Source: Eledone cirrhosa (Eukaryota). Taken from it: a stretch of DNA of 64,000 bases. The translations under genes and the position numbers were made by a program. Shown here one piece after another: positions 1-41,100 of this stretch. A model generated the notes under the pieces. The model was not told where the DNA came from. It saw only the letters and a program-made list of their open reading frames with translations, and made no database searches. The DNA is taken from NCBI GenBank assembly GCA_964016885.1, contig OZ024743.1:105276001-105340000 (forward strand), in the 5' to 3' direction. Every line of letters starts with the position of its first letter. Position 1 is the stretch's first letter.

Positions 1-468
1 ACAGATATGCCACCATCCACACCAGCATCACCAACCCCATCAACCCAAACACCAACACCATCACCATCATTATCCCCAGCACCACCATCACCTACACCAC
101 AAAAGTCACCAAAATGCGAAACAGAAACAAACCCACAACAAACGCAAACAAAACAAAACAACCAAAACGATACACACTACACAGCATTAAATTTGAACAA
201 CAAGCAATTATTACACTACATCCAACACAACACCAGCATCACAGAAAAAGACTACACAACAACCCCAAAATTCACACCACCTCCACACATACAAATCACT
301 CGCATCACACAGAAAACGTACATGACACTAAAACAAAAATTCCCCAAAGACATCGGAGACTTCCGACAAGTACTCTCCAGGAGGATTTATAAGGACATCC
401 TTCCTGAGGAGGCCACAAGCAGTGAAAAGGATGGAAAAGCCGTCCTTCCCCTACGAGAAGTAAGGTAA
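1..468 (+). CDS. C-terminal part of LINE ORF1 (Pro/Thr/Gln-rich), 5' end outside the window
   Basis: Open frame to TAA 466-468. The segment ITRITQKTYMTLKQKFPKDIG aligns with MIRVPADTYKSLK*NFPKDVG at the ORF1 end of the copy near 37860-37925. Confidence 0.8.
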   Translation, partial: TDMPPSTPASPTPSTQTPTPSPSLSPAPPSPTPQKSPKCETETNPQQTQTKQNNQNDTHYTALNLNNKQLLHYIQHNTSITEKDYTTTPKFTPPPHIQITRITQKTYMTLKQKFPKDIGDFRQVLSRRIYKDILPEEATSSEKDGKAVLPLREVR

Positions 469-502
469 GTGGTCTTTCCCATCTTTTCCACTCCTTTTCA
501 AC

Positions 503-3500
503 ATGACCTCACTCAGAATAGGCAGCATAAATGCGCGTGGCTTGGAGTCGTCATGGAAGCAGGGCCACCTGCTCAACGACCTCAGGTCACTAAACATAGA
601 TGTAGTGGCCATCAGCGAGACCAGAATCTCCGAAGCACAGGCTTTCGCACCGATCTTCGGCGGCTACGATGTGTACGCATCTCCCAGCCGTCCGGGATCG
701 GGGGGAGGAGTTGCTGTGCTTTTTCGGGGAGGTTTGGATCTTGCCATACGGGCCATCTTCCTGGACCCAGAAGGTAAGTTGGTGGTGCTGGACGTAACCA
801 GCAGAGACGGGCAAGCTTTCAGGTTAGTGGCCGTCTATGCCCCGACAGGAGCAGGGCGGCCTGATTTCTTCCGGCGTCTGGAGACCTTTCTTGGAACGTC
901 CCGCTTTTTAGTGTTAGTGGGCGACTGGAACGGGATCTTAGATGCACGCTGGGATTGTGTGGGATTAGTGGATAGGAAAGGAGGGTGCAAGAGTCTCACC
1001 AACCTGCTCAGACGTTTTGAACTGTCTGACAGGTACCGAATGGATTTCCCGAATGTACCAATGTGGACTTGGACAAATCGCATAGGGTCATCCAGATCAT
1101 ATCTAGATAGAGTATTTTGTAGGGAAATAGATAGGTCTAGCATAGGCTGTCCACAATTCAAGATAGTCAGCTACACGGACCACAAATTCGTGATCTGTGT
1201 GCTTGACTTAGATAGGCTTCATAGACGAGGACCCGGCTACTGGAAGCTAAACGCGTCCTTACCAGCGCGCAAGGCCTACAGAGACCGGATTAGCGAACTA
1301 GTTAAGCGGGCGTTGACGGGGGCCATCGTCAACAACAAGTGGTGGTTTGCTCTGAAAAGAGCAATTAGAATAGAGTCCATTAGGTTTAGTAAGACTTTAG
1401 CAATAGAGAAAAATAGAGCAGAGGAAGAATTAGTTAGAAAATTAGATGAGGCGCTTAGCAAAGGCATCGCGACCGACGTACTTGCGGCGAAATTGGCCCT
1501 TGACCAATTCTTCAATGCAAAGCACGAAGGCTGCGTTGTCAGAGCTAGGGTGCGTGCTCTCAGACACGAGGGGACGAAAGCCGTTCAATGGGCCCGAGTG
1601 GCGGAGGCGCGTCGTGGCAACAAAACCACGATCCGGTCTTTGATGGACCACGACGGGCGCATGCTACTCGATCCCGGGCAAATGTGTGAAGCTTTTCAGC
1701 GACACTTCGCTCAACTTTTCGGGGGCAGTGGCGGGCCGGCTCGAGGGATGGACTTTAGTGTCTACCTCGACGGACTGCCGCGGCTTTCGGCCACTGAGGC
1801 GGAGTGTTGCGAAAAGCCGATAACAACCGCTGAAGTACGGGATGCAATGACTAGTTGCACAAGGGGTAAATCGCCTGGTTTGGATGGTCTGCCCTATGAA
1901 CTTTACGTACAAATGCCAAACTTGTTCGGAGGCCTCTTGGCGGACGTCTACTGCAACTGGCAACAGAACGGGAGAATTCCCAGCTCTGTGAGCCGAGGAG
2001 CGGTGGCGCTGCTGAGAAAGGATCCGAACAAGGGGGATAACATAGATAATTTTAGGCCCATAACTCTGCTAAACACAGAGTTCAAGATTTTGGCCAAGGT
2101 GCTAGCAAAGAGGTTGGCGCTTGTCGTTGGTGGTCTGGTGGGAGAGGCACAGACATGCGCCATTCCCGACAGATCCATCCACGACAACCTCCACCTCATG
2201 CGATACATCGTAGAGAGGGTAGCTAGGGAACCTGGCACGGGTGGGTCTTTGATCAATTTAGATCAGTCGAAAGCCTTCGATAGGGTCGACCATCGTTACC
2301 TAACGGCAGTCCTGAGGGCGGCTGGCTTTGGGCCCGTCTTCAGAGGCTGGATCGCTGCCATGCACAGCGACATCTGCTCTGTAGTGAGAGTGAACGGTCA
2401 CCTTTCGGAACCGTTCAACATCATGCGCTCGGTCCGCCAAGGATGTCCCCTCTCGTCCCTATTGTACGTATTGACTCTCGAGCCATTACTGCACAAACTG
2501 GAGACGTTGAGGGGGGTCCCGCGCGAACTAGGATGCGGAAGATCCGTGTCAGCATATGCGGACGATGTCACCGTAGTGGTGTCGAACGCCAAACACATCG
2601 AGACGATCGGCACTACACTAAGAGAATACGAAGCGGTGACAGGAGCAATGATCAACCAGGAAAAGTCAGTGGGCCTGCAGCTCGGCACCTGGAGAGGCAG
2701 GTCCATGCCGTCCAACAGCGTCGTCGGGCGCTGGACGGACGGACCGGTTAAATTGCTAGGGGTCTGGTTCGGTCCAAACCTCCAGACGGACAACAACTGG
2801 GACGAGGTGACGAGCAGGGTGGCTTCTCTCACCCAGAAATGGGCGGAGAGGAAGCTATCTCTGAAAGGTCGAGCGGAGGTGGCGAATACGTACATCGTAT
2901 CCGTCATCTACTACCGCCTGACCGTCGTACCTTGTCCTAAGCCCCGCCTGACTGCGCTGGAGCGTTTGCTCTTTCGCTTCTTGTGGAGGGGACGCGCTCT
3001 GATGGTCAGGCGGTCCATCTGCTGTCAACACCCGCTACGTGGAGGGCTGGGCATGCCGTGGCTGATGATGCGCAGACACGCGCTCAGGCTACGACATCTC
3101 CACCTCTTCCTCGACGGTGATCAGGTGTGGTCGCCGTTTGCAAGACACGTTTTTCCCCAGCTCGTCTCCTTGACGGAGCTGCAGTCCTGGGTCAAGCGAA
3201 GACCGAGAGGGAGCGCTTGGAGACTGGAATGTCTTCAGGCGCTCACTGCCCTCGACCAATCGGGCAATGTGATCGGTGGAAACTCCACCTTGGCGTTCTA
3301 TAGGGGATTAGTGGAGGGGAAGAGCGACGACGTACTTGGAGAAACTCTAGGCGTTGACGAAAATCAACTAGCCAATCTCTTCGGAAGGACTTTCGGGCCG
3401 GGGCCTATGAACAACTTCCAGAAATCCCTGGCCTGGCAGTGCTACCGAGGAGCTTTGCCAGTTCGGGATAAACTCTACAGGCATGGAGGTGCCGTCACCC

Positions 3501-3922
3501 GGGCATGTCCGAGATGCGCGCAGGGCGACGAAACCGTCCTGCACGCACTCGTCCAGTGTCCGAGCATTGCTGACTTGTGGGTTTATGTCGAACACCTGCT
3601 GTCACGTGTAGGACCTATCCAGCTATCAGCTGAGTCCATCGTGAGGATCGCCCCGCCCCCTTCCTTTAGCCTGGAAGGGCAGGCAGTTTTTATCTGTCTG
3701 GTGGCCATGGCGAAAGAGATAGTATGGTGGACACGTTTGAAAGTGCTGAAGACGAGCACTTACCTCTTCGGTGATGCCCTGATTAACTTTTTCAAATTTC
3801 ATTTGAAAAGGAAAATCAGGGTAGAGAGGGAAGTGCTCTCTTCCCAGCATTTTGTTGAAAGATGGGTGAGAGAAGCAAGTATGGCCCGAATGAATGGGCC
3901 TTCTCTGAGTATGTGTCTGTAA
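503..3922 (+). CDS. LINE ORF2: apurinic-like endonuclease, reverse transcriptase and C-terminal Zn-knuckle (Tx1/L1 type)
   Basis: 1139-aa uninterrupted ORF. APE motifs SINARGL, SET, VYAP, GDWN, YLDR, TDH. RT motifs KSPGLDG, FRPITLLN, DQSKAFDRV, RQGCPLS, YADD, LLGV. C-terminal CPRC..ETVLHALVQC. Confidence 0.97.
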   Translation: MTSLRIGSINARGLESSWKQGHLLNDLRSLNIDVVAISETRISEAQAFAPIFGGYDVYASPSRPGSGGGVAVLFRGGLDLAIRAIFLDPEGKLVVLDVTSRDGQAFRLVAVYAPTGAGRPDFFRRLETFLGTSRFLVLVGDWNGILDARWDCVGLVDRKGGCKSLTNLLRRFELSDRYRMDFPNVPMWTWTNRIGSSRSYLDRVFCREIDRSSIGCPQFKIVSYTDHKFVICVLDLDRLHRRGPGYWKLNASLPARKAYRDRISELVKRALTGAIVNNKWWFALKRAIRIESIRFSKTLAIEKNRAEEELVRKLDEALSKGIATDVLAAKLALDQFFNAKHEGCVVRARVRALRHEGTKAVQWARVAEARRGNKTTIRSLMDHDGRMLLDPGQMCEAFQRHFAQLFGGSGGPARGMDFSVYLDGLPRLSATEAECCEKPITTAEVRDAMTSCTRGKSPGLDGLPYELYVQMPNLFGGLLADVYCNWQQNGRIPSSVSRGAVALLRKDPNKGDNIDNFRPITLLNTEFKILAKVLAKRLALVVGGLVGEAQTCAIPDRSIHDNLHLMRYIVERVAREPGTGGSLINLDQSKAFDRVDHRYLTAVLRAAGFGPVFRGWIAAMHSDICSVVRVNGHLSEPFNIMRSVRQGCPLSSLLYVLTLEPLLHKLETLRGVPRELGCGRSVSAYADDVTVVVSNAKHIETIGTTLREYEAVTGAMINQEKSVGLQLGTWRGRSMPSNSVVGRWTDGPVKLLGVWFGPNLQTDNNWDEVTSRVASLTQKWAERKLSLKGRAEVANTYIVSVIYYRLTVVPCPKPRLTALERLLFRFLWRGRALMVRRSICCQHPLRGGLGMPWLMMRRHALRLRHLHLFLDGDQVWSPFARHVFPQLVSLTELQSWVKRRPRGSAWRLECLQALTALDQSGNVIGGNSTLAFYRGLVEGKSDDVLGETLGVDENQLANLFGRTFGPGPMNNFQKSLAWQCYRGALPVRDKLYRHGGAVTRACPRCAQGDETVLHALVQCPSIADLWVYVEHLLSRVGPIQLSAESIVRIAPPPSFSLEGQAVFICLVAMAKEIVWWTRLKVLKTSTYLFGDALINFFKFHLKRKIRVEREVLSSQHFVERWVREASMARMNGPSLSMCL

Positions 3923-4165
3923 ATTAAAGGTGGAAAACTGGGAGAGGGCACTTGCCCTGGTGGTCAGGGCCACTGTGGTCTTTTAATGGGCTTTCTCCAC
4001 AAATGTCCCTTGGAAGTCTCCCCCCTATTGGGGAATTTTTCTTTGTTATTTTATTTCAACCTCTGTTTTTTTACACGCAGAAATGCCCATTTGTACCGTC
4101 CTGTATTGTCCTGTAATGTCCTTAATGTCTACTTTATGTGAACCCTTGTGGTTAATAAAGAAAAC

Positions 4166-4860
4166 ATTATTATTATTATTATTATTAGTAGTAGTAGTAG
4201 TAGTGGTAGCAGTATTATTAGCAGTATTAGTAGCAGTATTAATAGTAGCAGTGATCGTAACTCATAAAAATGCTAAAGCGGGAAATCATTCCTTACAGGC
4301 CATGTCCACTTCACACTCACATTTGAGTTATGTCAAGTGTCCAGAAGATAATGGAGAAGGAATATCAAAAGAATAAAAATAAGAGAAACGATATCTTATG
4401 ATTTATAATGTTCTGATAACATTTCTTGAAAAATATTCGTTCCGTAAAAATGTTTCGCAAAATTAATATTTATGATAACGATGATGATGATAATGATAAT
4501 GATGATGATGGTGGTAGTGGTAATGATAACGTGGCCTATGTGATGATGGCTGCGTGTGTGTTGATGTTGAGTATGATGAGGATGATAGTGATGATAATAA
4601 TAATAATATAGCTTGTGGTGGTGATGATGACAATGAAACAGTAGTTGATGACTATGATGACAATGGTGATGATAATAGGGATAGTTTTGAGGTTGATCTA
4701 TTTTTTCATAATCCTAAAAGCGGATAATAATCATAATGATAAAGATAGCGATAATGATGCTCAGAGAAAAAAGTTAAAGCAATGATAACAATAATGATAA
4801 TAATAGTAGAAGAAGAAGAAGAAGAAGAAGAAGAAGAAGAAGAAGAAGAAGAAGAAGAAA
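4166..4860. repeat. Trinucleotide microsatellite patchwork (TTA/TAG/GAT/GAA)
   Basis: Visible runs, e.g. (GAA)n at 4808-4858. Confidence 0.85.
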
Positions 4861-8619: not shown

Positions 8620-9560
8620 AAACGAGAAACAAGTACATTTATTCCAAACATAGAATTTTGGAAGCCTGGAATCTTTTGATGGCGTCTTGAGTTGGTGATA
8701 GGTTGCTGAAAACCTTTTACAATAAGTTATCAAGATGCTTCATAAATTGGAAGAAGATCGACGAAACGGTTGAGGAATAAACTAGGTAAGAGATGTTTTC
8801 GTAGTCTAGTCCGTTAAATTTCTGATGAGACATTTGAAAAGCTCATGCGTTGTTATGAGGAAGTATTGGTCCTTTTCTATTTGCGAATATTGGACGTACG
8901 CGTTGCAGTTCGTAGAGAAATACTTCTCTGTTGAAATGGTATTGCCAGAAATCAAGAAACAGTAGAGGGTTATGGTATTTGCCAAATGTAAAAAATGACA
9001 ATAATAATTCTCAATGATGGACCCTCTGCTTTGCAAAGTGTTTTAGGAAATTACTTCACTCTGGCCTCTGCGGTTGTGATATAAAATCAATCTTTCTTCA
9101 AATAGGACCAAGAAATTGATTGTTTTTGTTGTGTAAAACACCGCAGGTCAAAGTTTATCACAAATATATTTTTTATGCTTGTTCTGTTTGTTCAGTATCC
9201 ATTTGTCGTGTATTTTGATATTCCTTCCGATGTGGTAAAACTAGCAGGCAAATTTCGAAATATCAACATTTATTTCTTTTGAAACCTAACGAGTTTCTTT
9301 GCTTGGGTCCACTTCAGTAATCAGCTTCAACTGGTTATTATCAACTAAACAATTTTGTTTGTGATCAACTCCATTTTAAAATTTCTCGTCTCCACAACAG
9401 CATTTTGTGAATCAATGTTGAGCTGCATGTTAGTTGACGGAGCTCTAAAACAATACTTAGTCGACATTCCAAGTAGTTTCCGTTCACATGCGTTTCCTTT
9501 TAAACCATTGCATTAAAATCGCTCAAAGTTGTTATTAAATGAATCTTAAATGTAACGTAA
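8620..9560 (-). mobile_element. Decayed mariner/Tc1-type transposase relic
   Basis: Minus-strand pieces read VDNNQLKLITEVDPSKET (HTH region), ..DKW.. (WVPHEL region), EERLILYHNRR (DEKWILYDNR-like) and LISGNTISTEKY (G.TITAE.Y-like). Many stops and frameshifts. Confidence 0.6.
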
Positions 9561-22222: not shown

Positions 22223-24055
22223 TTAGTAGACCGGGAATTGTGATCGCCGGAAATCGAACGGGATATCTGACGCCGAGGGGAAAAGGTTCATCCTTGGAAT
22301 GAAAACATACTCCCCTCTTCCACACCCCGTTACAATGGTGGCCTCAATCAGGTGGGTGTCAGTGACTTGACGACCATGCGAGTACCGTTGCACTGCTTTG
22401 GTGGACGCAAGTTCCTTATTAGCATAATGACAGCCAACCCTAAGCTTAATAATGTGAGGTGGGAGCCCTGGGAGCTCAAGGAGATTTAATAACTCAACCG
22501 GATAATTAACGATATCGTCGGGGTCTGATTTGAAGATGTGCTCTTTACCGGGAATCTTCTCAATCAGCTGCTCGTTAATAAGATTAACCATGGTATTTTT
22601 CGGAGCAAGGATGGCTCTTTCGCTGAGCCAATCGAGGTTTTTAAAGTTAGATGAGACATTAGGAAAAACTGCTTCCCAAAGGTCCGAAGGGCTGCTCACA
22701 ATGTTGCACAGGGTGTCGATTGCTATGCCGCCCTTGTCATCCGCAGGGATCTTGCCCTCACCAAGTGCTAAAATGTTCTGTGCTGCAGACATGTTGTCAG
22801 CATGCAAATGAGCACGCATATTTGTGCTCAGGTACAAACTATTCACCTGGAGCCACAACATGGACGACTTAAGAGAGGCACGCACTTCATCAGCTCTTGT
22901 CCATTTGGGGATGACAGGCAGCGTTTTCCGAAAATCCCCTGATAGCAGAAGGGTTACGCCACCGATAGGAGCCGTAGAATCCCTAATGTCTTTCCGGGCC
23001 TCGTCCAATGCCTCAAGGGCACCCTTGTGTGCCATTGTGCACTCATCCCAAACAATGAGGCAACATCTTTTGAGAACCAGAGCTTTGTGTGAACTCTTGC
23101 TGATATTGCATGTTGGTGTCTCAGTTTTTACTAAATCCAAAGGGAGTTTAAAGGTTGAATGTGCTGTCCTGCCTCCCGGCAGCAAAGTAGCAGCGATCCC
23201 GGACGATGCAACGGACAACGCAACTTTTTTCTCCTGACGAATCTTAGCGAGAATCAAATTCGTTACAAAAGTTTTTCCGGTACCCCCAGGATCGTTTTTT
23301 ATTGGGGGGATCAGGTTTTTTTGGGGGGACCTTGAGGTATAACCAGTCAGTAGTTCCTTCAAAGGCTCTGGCGGTTCCGTAAGAGGGGGCAAGGTGACCT
23401 TACCGTTTAAGCAGCACATTGCAGGTGGCTCCCCAGCCCACTTTGTAGCATTGCAGATTTGGCAATTGAAGCGTATCTCGCCTATATTTATGTCAGAGCG
23501 CATCGAGTAATTAACGTTTTGCTCATACTTGAAAGCCCGTAGGTGCCAGTAAGGGCTGTTGGGGCTCGTCACACAGCGTGCAGCTTCTCGCCGTCGACTG
23601 TTACGCTTGAACGTAGAACATTGGTCGTGTGGTTGGTGGGAAGGTCTGGCAGCAATAGCAGAAGCAACATTTGCAATGCTAATGGACCGCCCGTCTGCAT
23701 CTTCAGAAGCCATGGAAGTAATCATAGCCGCAGCGTTCGTAGGAAGGCGAGCCGTCCGTTGTTTTAAACGTTCCAAAGACCTGGAAGCAGCATTAGTCGC
23801 ATCGTTTCTAACCAGGTGCTTCGACCTTTGTTCACGGCTTTCTGAAGCCCTGGAAGAAGCCTGGTATGAAGCCATTTTGGCTAGGCGTGCGGTGCGCTGT
23901 TGGAAACTTTCAGTGGCTCGACATTCTGCTGAACATAAGGCTGTCTGTGAAAGTCTTGAAGCATTTTCCTCAGAGGACTCGTTTGCTATAGTAGCCTTTT
24001 GCGCCACTGCTGACGCGGTATGTCGACTGAGGCGACTTCTCTTTTTAGGTGGCAT
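22223..24055 (-). CDS. Truncated RepHel: N-terminal helical repeats and Zn-finger fused in frame to a PIF1-like helicase; Rep/HUH domain missing
   Basis: MPPKKRS start; C..C.A.KW.GE...CC..GK zinc finger; PGGTGKTF, SSGIAATLL.GGRTAHS, WDE, GDFR, LSTNMR, RAILAP, LPPH. Frameshifted near the C-terminus. Confidence 0.85.
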   Translation of the reverse strand: MPPKKRSRLSRHTASAVAQKATIANESSEENASRLSQTALCSAECRATESFQQRTARLAKMASYQASSRASESREQRSKHLVRNDATNAASRSLERLKQRTARLPTNAAAMITSMASEDADGRSISIANVASAIAARPSHQPHDQCSTFKRNSRRREAARCVTSPNSPYWHLRAFKYEQNVNYSMRSDINIGEIRFNCQICNATKWAGEPPAMCCLNGKVTLPPLTEPPEPLKELLTGYTSRSPQKNLIPPIKNDPGGTGKTFVTNLILAKIRQEKKVALSVASSGIAATLLPGGRTAHSTFKLPLDLVKTETPTCNISKSSHKALVLKRCCLIVWDECTMAHKGALEALDEARKDIRDSTAPIGGVTLLLSGDFRKTLPVIPKWTRADEVRASLKSSMLWLQVNSLYLSTNMRAHLHADNMSAAQNILALGEGKIPADDKGGIAIDTLCNIVSSPSDLWEAVFPNVSSNFKNLDWLSERAILAPKNTMVNLINEQLIEKIPGKEHIFKSDPDDIVNYPVELLNLLELPGLPPHIIKLRVGCHYANKELASTKAVQRYSHGRQVTDTHLIEATIVTGCGRGEYVFIPRMNLFPSASDIPFDFRRSQFPVY

Positions 24056-24059
24056 TTTA

Positions 24060-24500
24060 TGTCCAAAAGAAAGGTTGAAAGTTACTTCTACAGAAAAATT
24101 GACTTTGAAAGTCTACTGTCTGTTTATGAATATTGTTATTGTTGTTGTGATACAAATGTTATTTATTAAATGGGTATCGAAAAATAAAGGGTGAAAGTTA
24201 CTTCAACATAAAAATTGACTTTGAAAGTATAAGGCTGATAATTGAATGTAAAAAGATTGATAAGAAAGGCCCACCAAAAAAATTTACAGGTATTTGTATG
24301 TATGTGTGTATTTTTATGTCGAAAAGAAAGAGTTAAAGTTACTTCTACAGAAAAATTTAGTTTGAAAGTGTAAGGCCGATGTGTGTGTAAATTAAGTGAC
24401 AGGTATTTGTATGTATGTGTGTCTATGTATGTATGTGTGTATGGAAGTGTAAGGCCGATGTGTGTGTACATTAAGTGACAGGTATTTGTATGTATGTGTG

Positions 24501-36501: not shown

Positions 36502-38122
36502 AATGACAGCAAGAACAACAACAGCAACGATGATAACAACACCACAACGAACAACAACACGAACAACTCCACGAACAAGGAAAAGATTTCCTTTGCTCAA
36601 ACCGTCCAAAAGACGGAACTGTTCACATAACTTGACATTTCCAATGCTAGGGAAATGTTAAGCGGTGCAAAACAGTAAGTAACTTTTGGTGAGAGTGGTG
36701 CTTTCAGCATCACTTCTAAACAGTTACGCAGAGAAACTGTTCTAAAAACAGTAATGTTTAGGACGGTTTCAAATGTGTCGAAAAAACCAGTTCAATTATC
36801 CCAAAACGATATTGAACTGTTTCTGAAGAATTCCATGAAGGATATTGCCTTCATCCAAAAAGGGAAACTTTTTGGAAGCATTTCGGTGTTGTTAAAAGAC
36901 TAATTGACGACACAAAAATATTCTGTATCGTCGATTGTGTCCCCTTTTACACCTTTTTCCCCACATATATGGGAAAAAGGACACAAAAGATAAAAATTTC
37001 GAACATTGCACCAAATATAAACTCTGGGGGATTTTAACTGGCTTCATCGATTATGACGAAGACACCATCATTTCGGTGGGAAAGTCCCCCAGAGGCACAT
37101 TCAATGGTACAATCATGGAAGTTTTGGTACAAATGAGGCCAGAAAGGATAGCTAAAATACCCCAACGTGTGCCTCTGGATGGAATTTCACACATAAACAT
37201 TTCTGTTGAGGGTAGGCGGCCTTTCTGTTACCACTGTTTAAGCAGTGGTCACCTGAAGGCTTACTGTCCTCAGTTAACTACAAAAAAAGAGGCACTACTG
37301 CCAACACCCAAAACAACAACACAACCACCACCACCACAACAACACCAACAACACGCAAACATAACCAAAACAGGAACAACAAACCAACCTGCAAGCACAG
37401 TGCCACCCAACCCCACTCTACCTAAAATCACTGCAAAATGACCCACAAACACAACAGCTCCCCAAAACATACACCTTCAAAATAACACAGACACGACATC
37501 GGACGAGGCCCCCTCATCATCATCACCAAGTGACGATGAGGGAGAGCCTCTCCGTTCGAAAAGAAAGAAAAAAAGACACCACAAGAACAAAAAAACAACA
37601 AACATCACTACAAACATACAACCACCAACACAAACAACACAAACATTACAAACAAACTCCCCCCGCCCCGAAAGCAAAACCACGACATCACTCCAAACAC
37701 AAACACCTACAACAAAACGAAAGTTCCCACAGGAACAACAAACAAAAACCACCGCAACACAGCAAGAACAATACACATACATAAACAGTAAAATCAAAAC
37801 TTTAATGCAGGACATTTCCAACGACCATTTTTCGAACTGTGTAGACAAACCTAATTTAAAGATGATTAGGGTCCCTGCGGACACCTATAAGTCTTTAAAG
37901 TAAAACTTTCCTAAGGACGTGGGTAATCCTTGTGTTAAACCCATTAACCGCGTCCTTTTAAAAAGTTTCCCCACCCTCACCCCAGACACATCCACACCAG
38001 ACAGCCCCTCCCCACCAAACATCTCCGTCCACACCCCGCTGGAAACCACCACCCACCCAGACAACCCCTCTAACACTCCCATGGAAATCGGGCGGCCTGA
38101 TCCCTGGGAGACGAAGAGGTGA
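36238..38122 (+). pseudogene. LINE ORF1 (poly-Asn tract, CCHC knuckle, Thr/Pro-rich tail), disrupted
   Basis: ATG at 36238, (AAC)n, SFAQTV, CYHCLSSGHLKAYC, FPKDVG. Several stops and frameshifts. Confidence 0.85.
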
Positions 38123-38162
38123 GTTTTTTCTTCTCCTCTTCTTTTAACTTTTCAGAAACAAC

Positions 38163-41100
38163 ATGGCCAATATAAGAGTTGGATGTGTGAATGTACGCGG
38201 CCTGGGGATGTCTTGGAAACAGGGCAAACTCTTAAACGATCTCTGGTCGCACATTATGGATGTAGTAGCTATTTGCGAGTCCCGGATCCACAGCGAGCGA
38301 CAGCTGGCCCCCATCTTCGATGACTTTGAGATCTACGCATCTCTCTGTCAACCGGGGTGTGGGGGCGGGGTTGCTGTTTGCTGCGGAAACACCTGGGCCT
38401 GGAAACACAGGCGCTACATCTGGACCCGGAGGGTCGACTGGTGGTCCTAGACGTTAACGGTAGTGAAGGTGGAGCCTTCAGGCTTGTGGCCGCATTGCCC
38501 CATCCGGGACACCGCGGCCAGACTTCTTCAAACGTCTAGAGACTTTTCTGGGAAGGTCCCAATCCTTACTTTTAGTGGGGGACTGGAATGGAATCCAAGA
38601 TGCACGTTGGGACTAGGTGGGAGCATGTCCCGATAAAGGGGGTGTAACAGCCTCAAACAGTTAATCGGCCGATTTGACCTGGCCGATAGATATCAACTAG
38701 ATTTTCCGACTGTGCCACTGTGGACGTAGACTAATCGTAACGGAACATCTAGTTCGTACCTAGATAGGGTTCTACTTAGAAATAAGGATAGGGACATGTT
38801 AAGCTGTCCACAAATGTTCATGAGCCTATTCAGATCACAAGCATGGTCAACCTTGACAGAACACATAGACAAGGACCCGGCTACTGGAAGCTGAACTTGT
38901 CGTTACCGACAAGCAAAGCCTACAGTAGACGGATTAGCACTTTAGTTAAACAGCACTTGACAGGGGCCATTGTCAACAACAGATGGTGGTACTCTCTCAA
39001 GATGGCAGTTAGATTAGACTCGTTAGTTTTTAGTAAAGAATTAGCGTTAGTTAGAAATAGGACCGAGAAGGAACTGGTAGATAAAGTAGAAGAGGCAATT
39101 AGAAGTGGCAACGTAGCCAGCGTGCTAGCAACGAGAACGGCATTGGACCAGTTCTTCGACGCAAAGTACGAGGGCTGCGTTGTCAGAAGCAAAATACGTG
39201 CTCTGGGAAACGAGGGAACCAAAGCTGTTAGCTGGGCCCAAGTGACGGAGGAAAAAAGTGGCAACAAGTATACGATTCGGTCTTTGAAGGACTAAGACGG
39301 ACGCGGGATACGTGAGCCGAAGCAGATGTGTGCGGCCTTTCAGCGGCACTAGGCTCAACGCCGGTAGGGGCTGTGGATATCGGTCCACACCTCGAAGGCC
39401 AACCGCGACCCTCGGACAGCGAGGCGAATTTCTGCGAAAAGCCGATTTCAACCGCTGAGATAGGGTCTCGACGGTCTACCCTACGAATTTTACGTAGCAA
39501 TGCCGGACTTATTCTCCGGTCTCCTAGAAGCTTCTACTGCAACTGGCAGCCTAACGGGAGAATTCCCAGTTCTGTGACCGGGGGCGTAGTCATACTAGTC
39601 AGGAAGGACGAGAATAAGAGGGATGGCATAGGCAACTTCCGGCCCATAACTCTGCTAAACACAGAGTTACAGATTTTGGCCAAGGCGTTGGCAAAGAGGC
39701 TGGCGCTTGTCGTCGAGAACCTGGTGGGAGAAGCGCAGACATGCGCAATCCCGACCAGGTCCATACACGACAACCTCCACTTCAGGCGATACATCATAGA
39801 GAGGGTAGGGTGTAAACCCGGCTTAGGTGGGGCCCTGATCAACTTGGATCAGTCTAAGGCTTTCGATAGGGTTGACCATCGTTACCTGGATGCGGTGCTC
39901 GAGGCGGCAGGCTTCGGACCCGTGTTCAGGGGCTGGATTGCTGCAACGCACAACAGCAACATCAGCTCATGGGTCAAGGTGAACGGTTACCTTTCGGAGC
40001 CATTCCATATCACGCGATCCATTCGACAGGGATGCCCTCTCTCCTCCCTTCTGTACGTACTGACTCTCGAGCCACTACAGCGGAAGTTGGAGCTATTGCA
40101 AGGCATCCGTTTGGAACCGGGACTGCGGAAAACGGCGTTGTCCCACGCCGACGACGTGACAGTAATGGTGTGGAATACCTCGCAAATCGAGGAAGTCGGC
40201 ACTTTACTGAAGGAATACGAAAGGTTCACAGGAGCGAAGCTGAACCGGGAAAAGTCCATCGGTTTACAACTCGGATCGTGAAGAGGCAAACCGATGCCTT
40301 CAGATGGCCTCATCGGACGCTGGACGCAAGGACTGGTAAAGCTGCTCGGAGTCTGGTTTGGTCCGGACCTCCAGGTGGAGAAGAATTGGAACGAGGTGAC
40401 GGCCAAGGTGTTTGCACTCACCCAGAAGTGGGCCGAGTGCAAACTATCTTTGAAAGGTCGAGCGGAGGTGGCGAACACTTTTATAGCGTCCGCCATCTAC
40501 TACCACTTGACCGTCGTGCCTTGTCCAGCCAAAGCGTTCACCAAAATGGAGCGCGCGCTCTTCCAATTTCTCTGGAAGAGGCGGGCTCCTTTGGTGAGAA
40601 GATCCATCTGCTGCCAACACACTTCCAACGGAGGGCTGGGGTAGCCGTGGCTGACGATGCGCAAACACGCGCTCAGGCTGCGGCGTCGCTACGTATTCCT
40701 CACCGGACAACCGGTGTGGGCCCCGTTCGTGAGGCGAGCCTTTGCACGACTCGTCTCGCTGACCGAGCTACAGTCCTGGGTCAAGCAGAGACCGAGGAAA
40801 ATGGGCGACTGGCACATCGAATCTGCTCAGGCGCTCACAGCCCTCTGGCAGGCGGACCCGGCGATCAGTGGAGACTCCAATTCGTCATTCTATAGAGGGT
40901 TGATCCGCAGCAAGTGGGACGACGCGCTCGGTGAAACTCTAGGCGTAGAGGAAGACGAACCGATGGACAACTTCCAAAAGTCCCTGGCCTGGCAGTGCTA
41001 CCGAGGAGCTCTACCAGTTCGAGACGAGCTCTACAGACATGGGCGCCCGGGCAGGGACCCTTCGAAAAAGATCTTTCCGAGGTGCGTGCGAGACGAAGAA

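Follow-up and report, generated by a model that had tools for sequence, protein, structure and literature searches.

We found that a lineage of L1/Tx1-like retrotransposons in Eledone cirrhosa carries a near-perfect 5' splice site (donor) at the end of ORF1, just upstream of ORF2, and that this motif has been kept while the reading frame of ORF1 around it shifted. The donor is not a chance match, and the constraint is best read, from comparing the copies, as acting on the RNA. Our preferred but tentative explanation is that the donor might be a U1-binding site in RNA that stays unspliced, and that it might govern the processing of this RNA, as in the Ty1/copia elements of plants. The element is an ordinary L1/Tx1-like retrotransposon that carries a lineage-wide RNA motif.

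The window is a 64,000-nt stretch of the forward strand (GCA_964016885.1, OZ024743.1:105,276,001-105,340,000) from an animal genome of 3.0 Gb. It opens with the 3' part of the ORF1 of a family A copy (1..468, + strand), which ends in ...LPLREVR and the stop codon TAA (466-468). The ORF1 of this copy is disrupted upstream of the window; an intact family A ORF1 has the same stop and encodes 662 amino acids with a CCHC knuckle. ORF2 (503..3922, + strand) is intact and encodes 1,139 amino acids with an APE endonuclease (PF03372), a reverse transcriptase or RT (PF00078), and a zf-RVT zinc finger (PF13966), as identified with Pfam. In the PDB, it matches the human L1 endonuclease best, with E values between 2e-6 and 2e-4. 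The 3' UTR (3923..4187, + strand) contains a CCCCC-TATT-GGGG inverted repeat (about 4020-4033), a U-rich tract, CAG at 4078-4080, AATAAA at 4154-4159, and (ATT)n. The element thus has the L1-clade arrangement of an APE endonuclease at the N terminus of ORF2, an RT, and a C-terminal zinc finger, along with two ORFs, a poly(A) signal, a simple-repeat tail, and no LTR.

Insertion into repeated targets such as microsatellites is a feature of Tx1 elements. Indeed, (ATT)n lies on either side of the window copy, and other types have (ATT)n, (TA)n, or (TATC)n tails. A knuckle of the form CX2CX4HX4C is present in the ORF1 of most types that we examined (in one of three ORF1s it gave a Pfam zf-CCHC match, below the cut-off). 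Tx1 type I elements have an RRM as well as the CCHC knuckle, and no Pfam match to an RRM was found among the three ORF1s searched. The Tx1 label comes from an earlier note on this DNA, and named Tx1 references were absent among the protein relatives that we found. From the available text of two papers on L1-Tx1 elements (PMC5203782, PMC13282606), our element resembles these in its two ORFs, the CCHC knuckle in ORF1, the APE-RT-zinc finger order of ORF2, and its insertion into microsatellites. One of them (PMC13282606) describes active L1-Tx1 families in an octopus, and the available part does not mention splicing. We found no relatives among viral contigs. No close relative with ORF1 fused to ORF2 was found among 48 relatives (626-1994 amino acids) in the protein database, which is nearly empty for this lineage.

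An endonuclease motif that is independent of the spacer between the ORFs matches at 9,282 places in the genome. We distinguished 15 subfamily types (A, A2, B including B2, C, D, E, F, G, H, I, J, K, M, N, and O), of which K, M, N, and O are each represented by one copy, and we tabulated the AGs, phases, and ATG of the junction for 14 types. The subfamilies are kin and form about three deep clades, so counts of conservation are not independent. Family D accounts for 14 of the 30 copies that we sampled by position. Type D is young and intact. Type C is intact in both ORF1 and ORF2; of 40 open-frame matches, six were fetched, and all six were type C.

In the window, the donor consensus AAG|GTAAGT (462..470, + strand; GT at 465-466) overlaps the stop codon of ORF1. 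It is followed by a pyrimidine-rich spacer (473..499, + strand; 25 of 27 nucleotides are C or T) and by the AG proposed as an acceptor (515..516, + strand), so that all of these signals lie where the earlier note had placed them. The junction is identical in the best 30 family A matches. Among the 30 position-sampled copies, 25 have an exact G|GTRRGT at the end of ORF1; the five misses are one deletion, three decayed or mutated copies, and a GTAATT in type K. By type, the exact motif (as GTAAGT, GTGAGT, or GTAGGT) is present in 13 of 15, with near-matches in the other two. Elsewhere in intact elements, there are just one or two such sites per 5.5-5.9 kb. By a simple score for matching U1, the GT at the junction ranks first or joint first in 19 of 22 elements, each with 272-464 GT sites (the exceptions are A2, M, and O). 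Across the 14 tabulated types, the spacer keeps its composition and varies in length, with 25-45 nt from donor to ATG. Donor and pyrimidine tract are both conserved above background across the lineage, a point that the earlier note had asked to be tested.

In phase 2 (types A, A2, B, B2, D, E, J, and F2), the motif contains the stop codon of ORF1; in phase 1 (types C, G, H, I, N, and O), the stop codon comes right behind the motif, and ORF1 ends in G-K or G-R. (Homology of the ORF1 end was the basis for assigning the frame in E, J, F2, and N, and in part in G.) On the subfamily tree, the frame around the donor changed at least twice. All three stop codons are used, and each is compatible with GTRRGT. 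The main clades differ by 0.42-0.45 at four-fold sites of ORF2, and 24 of 119 such sites are invariant over 12 types. That the donor is kept while the frame of ORF1 shifts is why we read the constraint as acting on the RNA. A conserved C-terminal arginine was ruled out as the cause, since the phase-1 types C, G, H, I, and N end in lysine. The earlier note had tied its proposal to donor and phase both persisting in most subfamilies: the donor does persist, and the phase differs in 6 of the 14 types. In type F, two copies are in phase 2, one is in another frame, and one (L185) reads through; these copies are ambiguous, and we do not claim read-through of the donor for this family. Some type F copies (L168, L178, L183) also show a degenerate 23-nt duplication just upstream of the donor, and some have a further 75-nt duplication.

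A second exact AAG|GTAAGT lies within ORF2 (771..779, + strand), where it encodes part of E-G-K-L. This 9-mer is found in A, G, and N and is missing from most other types, which shows that such motifs can arise from coding.

The donor is lineage-specific, as far as we have seen. We collected 80 distant relatives from metagenome contigs; 59 reach the start of ORF2, and 51 could be anchored at the junction. None of these 51 L1/Tx1-like elements has a donor at the junction position, in contrast to the lineage described here; there were two donor-like matches, both elsewhere, and the background was 39 of 2,595 windows.

The earlier note proposed that removing 465-516 (52 nt) as a regulated, retained intron would fuse ORF1 to ORF2. 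This splice would leave the frame of ORF2 intact, as claimed. A feature that the note omitted is the start codon of ORF2 itself (ATG at 503-505, within 497..506, + strand), which sits inside the proposed intron. It has a conserved, Kozak-like context, (C/A)AACATG, and is kept in 14 of 14 tabulated types. The proposed AG makes up positions 1 and 2 of the fifth ORF2 codon (Arg) and is not kept as YAG across subfamilies. The homologous AG is part of CAG in A, A2, G, and N and of AAG in B, C, D, F2, H, J, and O (and also in I, where the scored copy is mutated); in type E, it is replaced by a CGA codon (6 loci), and E has no in-frame AG at all. Only the phase-2 types have the homologous AG in frame; used as an acceptor in a phase-1 type, C among them, it would lead to a stop after 1-4 codons.

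Other AGs could restore the frame. In five of the six phase-1 types (G, C, H, I, and O), a TAG that is in frame lies 5 nt beyond the homologous AG, and the sole in-frame AG of type N is a GAG that would give a 35-nt intron. In-frame YAGs would give introns of 52-53 nt in A and A2 and of 34-37 nt in B and B2, while D (39 nt), F2 (42 nt), and J (59 nt) have only a weak AAG. In total, 13 of 14 types have some in-frame AG, but in type G, the first and best AG (a CAG) is out of frame. In most types, the cluster of AGs covers both of the observed phases, so an in-frame AG comes cheaply. Of the features expected of a retained intron, we thus found a conserved 5' splice site, and not a conserved YAG, phase, or workable length.

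The window also holds a decayed family B junction (38116..38177, + strand), which the earlier note described as having the same arrangement. The likeness holds for the donor, GAG|GTGAGT (38116-38124; GT at 38119-38120), and for the phase of its TGA; there is a pyrimidine tract as well. It does not hold for the acceptor: the first AG (38154-38155) is upstream of the ATG (38163-38165) and would give a 37-nt intron, and the AG that is homologous to 515-516 (38175-38176) is part of AAG (38174-38176).

If RT were made from spliced RNA and preferred its own template, then intron-less copies should be common. According to the available text of a study of human L1 (PMC5860796), L1 proteins act in cis and prefer their own mRNA, a property that we carry over to this lineage by analogy, and 131 of 6,609 human L1 copies (about 2%) are spliced. 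We searched family A, which has 2,467 copies with an intact donor, for the exon end followed by a non-G, and then for the exon end followed by any base and a non-T. The first search gave three matches, all point mutants and none spliced. The second gave 55 matches, all of which we inspected and none of which is spliced: besides point mutants, there are small deletions, stretches of unrelated DNA, and a single 346-nt deletion. The upper bound on the spliced fraction in family A is about 0.12%, for a search that is blind to acceptor exons that start with GT, or with AT, CT, or TT in half of the family. In the 346-nt deletion (L217; G000:C4:91550650-91551350), the missing sequence runs from the donor position into the endonuclease and leaves ORF1 in frame with ORF2, but it ends in GG, not AG, in all of the parents tallied, so we rejected it as a spliced copy.

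The other families gave similar results. None of 12 matches in C/H is spliced, and neither is any of the 74 family B matches that we inspected, out of 117 (among the rest, 26 start with letters that fit no local acceptor and 17 were outside the inspected set). Family D gave no matches, which is weaker than the family A result, as the copies of D were not counted and the zero includes zero point mutants. Thus, the intron-less copies that the earlier note had suggested looking for were not found in A, D, C/H, or the inspected B matches. Contigs of unknown kind that align to one locus (L031:2900-8170, 4 sets) are uninformative: none of the 15 listed joints is at the donor, and 308 further joints are unlisted. 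One contig from run X5, which may be DNA or RNA, crosses the junction without a gap and is not evidence either way.

A near-perfect donor that is kept, with no spliced copy among thousands, suggests that U1 docking is a likelier role than protein fusion. We envisage that U1 would bind to the junction donor in unspliced RNA. Bound U1 might suppress premature cleavage and polyadenylation at AAUAAA or AUUAAA hexamers in the A-rich ORF1; alternatively, the donor might control nuclear export and decay. The downstream U/C-rich tract may help to recruit U1, in the manner of TIA-1, which binds U-rich tracts downstream of donors. In HIV-1, a downstream donor suppresses an upstream poly(A) site. ORF2 would be translated by re-initiation at its own ATG.

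The GAG-POL intron of EVD, a Ty1/copia element of Arabidopsis, offers a parallel (Oberlin et al. 2017, PMC5580714). As described in the available text, EVD also has a conserved 5' splice site between its structural and enzymatic genes, its unspliced full-length RNA replicates, and U1 has a splicing-independent role, in that bound U1 blocks premature termination of this RNA; here, we infer the role of U1. In contrast to our non-LTR element, which has no conserved acceptor and has a separate ATG for ORF2, EVD is an LTR element whose intron and acceptor are real and in use. Human L1 (SpIREs; Larson et al. 2018, PMC5860796), again from the available text, shares with our element its clade and the retention of internal splice signals during evolution, but its donor is in the 5' UTR and is spliced in about 2% of full-length copies, whereas ours is at the end of ORF1 with no spliced copy found. 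An intact donor consensus in unspliced mRNA is also shared with 5'-splice-site motifs that inhibit export, as reported in the available parts of PMC4380460 and PMC9074902; these describe nuclear retention as a quality check on mRNA in human cells, whereas our motif is one that a retrotransposon has kept.

Within the element itself, support for this reading is weak. The ORF1s of A, A2, C, and D contain AATAAA or ATTAAA at 74-490 nt before the donor, which is partly due to Asn-Lys codons. We rejected an upstream AATAAA (about 320-350 nt before the donor) as a conserved signal, as in C and D it corresponds to the Asn-Lys codons of an ORF1 motif. Several points speak against a U1 site. The young, intact ORF2s contain zero (A, A2, and D) or one (C) AATAAA, which leaves hardly any canonical signal for U1 to suppress on the downstream side. 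By analogy to human cells, where such a motif retains and degrades RNA, it should be costly to the element. Also, distant L1/Tx1 elements manage without a donor.

It is also possible, though unlikely, that part of the RNA is spliced from this donor to a variable or distant acceptor. The resulting subgenomic mRNA, with ORF1 only, would end early or lack RT in cis and would therefore escape copying, like that of Ty1/copia. The donor is strong, the available text of PMC5580714 gives a direct precedent, and use of the homologous AG in phase-1 types would make just such a message. A strong U-tract is found together with a CAG in the 3' UTRs of A and A2; a distal acceptor there was rejected as a general partner, as it is found in A/A2-type tails alone and is missing in C, D, B, E, H2, and J. 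Furthermore, no strong ORF2 acceptor is conserved among the top-scoring sites, a local splice in phase-2 types would give a fusion instead, and no such genomic copies were found in A, D, or C/H.

The motif could instead be part of a signal for translational coupling (a stop in a G context, an unstructured pyrimidine spacer, and a strong Kozak context), with its likeness to a donor as a by-product, which we also think improbable. The ORF2 of L1-clade elements is made from a bicistronic RNA. The stop is within or directly after the motif in 14 of 14 types, and the start context of ORF2 is as conserved as the donor. Yet the stop occurs at two places relative to the motif while -1G, +1G, +2T, +5G, and +6T are all kept, even though in phase-2 types +5 and +6 do not code for anything and in phase-1 types +2 falls on the wobble base of a glycine codon. 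Nor is there a conserved hairpin around the donor, as compared to composition-matched shuffles (combined p = 0.60 and 0.69).

The fusion by a retained intron, with only unspliced RNA being mobilized, is quite doubtful as a use of the donor, and less likely than an unspliced U1 site. The in-frame acceptors described above could serve it, at the cost of the first residues of ORF2 in G, C, H, I, and O, and in family A, the joint would preserve the pattern of the first endonuclease strand. But an in-frame AG is cheap, the first and best AG of G is out of frame, and E has no AG in frame; J, F2, and even the young and intact D would have to use AAG; the context of ORF2's ATG is conserved; and the family A copies include 2,467 unspliced and no spliced, against the proportion in human L1 (PMC5860796, available text). 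Also, the introns, at 34-63 nt, would be shorter than the 76-nt minimum given for vertebrates in the available text of PMC9438311, which may differ in this animal. What survives of the earlier note's interpretation is the conserved donor and pyrimidine tract, and not a conserved intron that yields an RT fusion. A regulated switch seems just as doubtful: U1 would keep the genomic RNA whole, and a fraction would be spliced at a nearby in-frame AG (CAG in A, TAG in C, G, H, I, and O), giving an ORF1-ORF2 polyprotein that would act only in trans on unspliced RNA. If true, this would be a retrovirus-like gag-pol strategy within an L1-clade element.

Least probable is that the motif has no current function and was inherited from one ancestor under overlapping coding and stop constraints: there are only about three deep clades, 20% of four-fold sites in ORF2 likewise show no change across types (36-42% when each phase group is taken separately), an equally perfect 9-mer arose from coding at 771-779, and the motifs in K and M are weaker, but the adjoining ORF1 codons and spacer bases were rewritten, the spacer changed in length, and the frame changed at least twice while five motif positions stayed, and the invariant string matches a consensus that was given a priori.

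Our searches of the open literature, which took in few subscription papers or Repbase reports, turned up no description of a splice donor between ORF1 and ORF2 in Tx1 or any other L1-clade elements. Only for a few species is it known how elements of this clade balance their two ORFs and avoid splicing of their RNA. A junction donor kept in two reading frames, in a lineage of at least 9,282 copies, points to RNA-level control, which we did not find described for non-LTR elements and which, if true, would parallel that of plant copia. The natural variants A, C, D, and E are ready test pairs. Also, thousands of strong donors provide a substrate from which chimeric splicing to host genes could arise.

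Some copies appear to be rearranged. The start of ORF2 is 97% identical between A2 (L068, L075, L364) and A (L371), while the ORF1 knuckle and C terminus differ, likely due to an exchange of ORF1. In run X1, depth rises about 2.4-fold at the junction, which fits different ORF1s sharing one ORF2. One locus (L359) has an H-type junction and then an A-type 3' end, so it is a chimera or a nested insertion. Six family D copies lie head-to-tail, 5.7-7.1 kb apart (L097-L102; G000:C1:4225357-4255780), and comparable pairs occur at other places; insertion of copies into one another's repeat tails would be expected to produce this pattern. The inverted repeat of C-run, TATT, and G-run, followed by a U-rich tract, is present in the 3' UTR of most subfamilies (4020-4033 in the window; also L122 and L357-L376), and the tails are (ATT)n in A, C, H, and I, (TA)n in D, and (TATC)n in F2. 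Possibly, the inverted repeat is an RT recognition element and the tails reflect differing microsatellite targets. Finally, a 629-amino-acid open frame in the window (22223-24112, - strand) has PIF1 helicase and STPR domains and is probably a piece of a Helitron.
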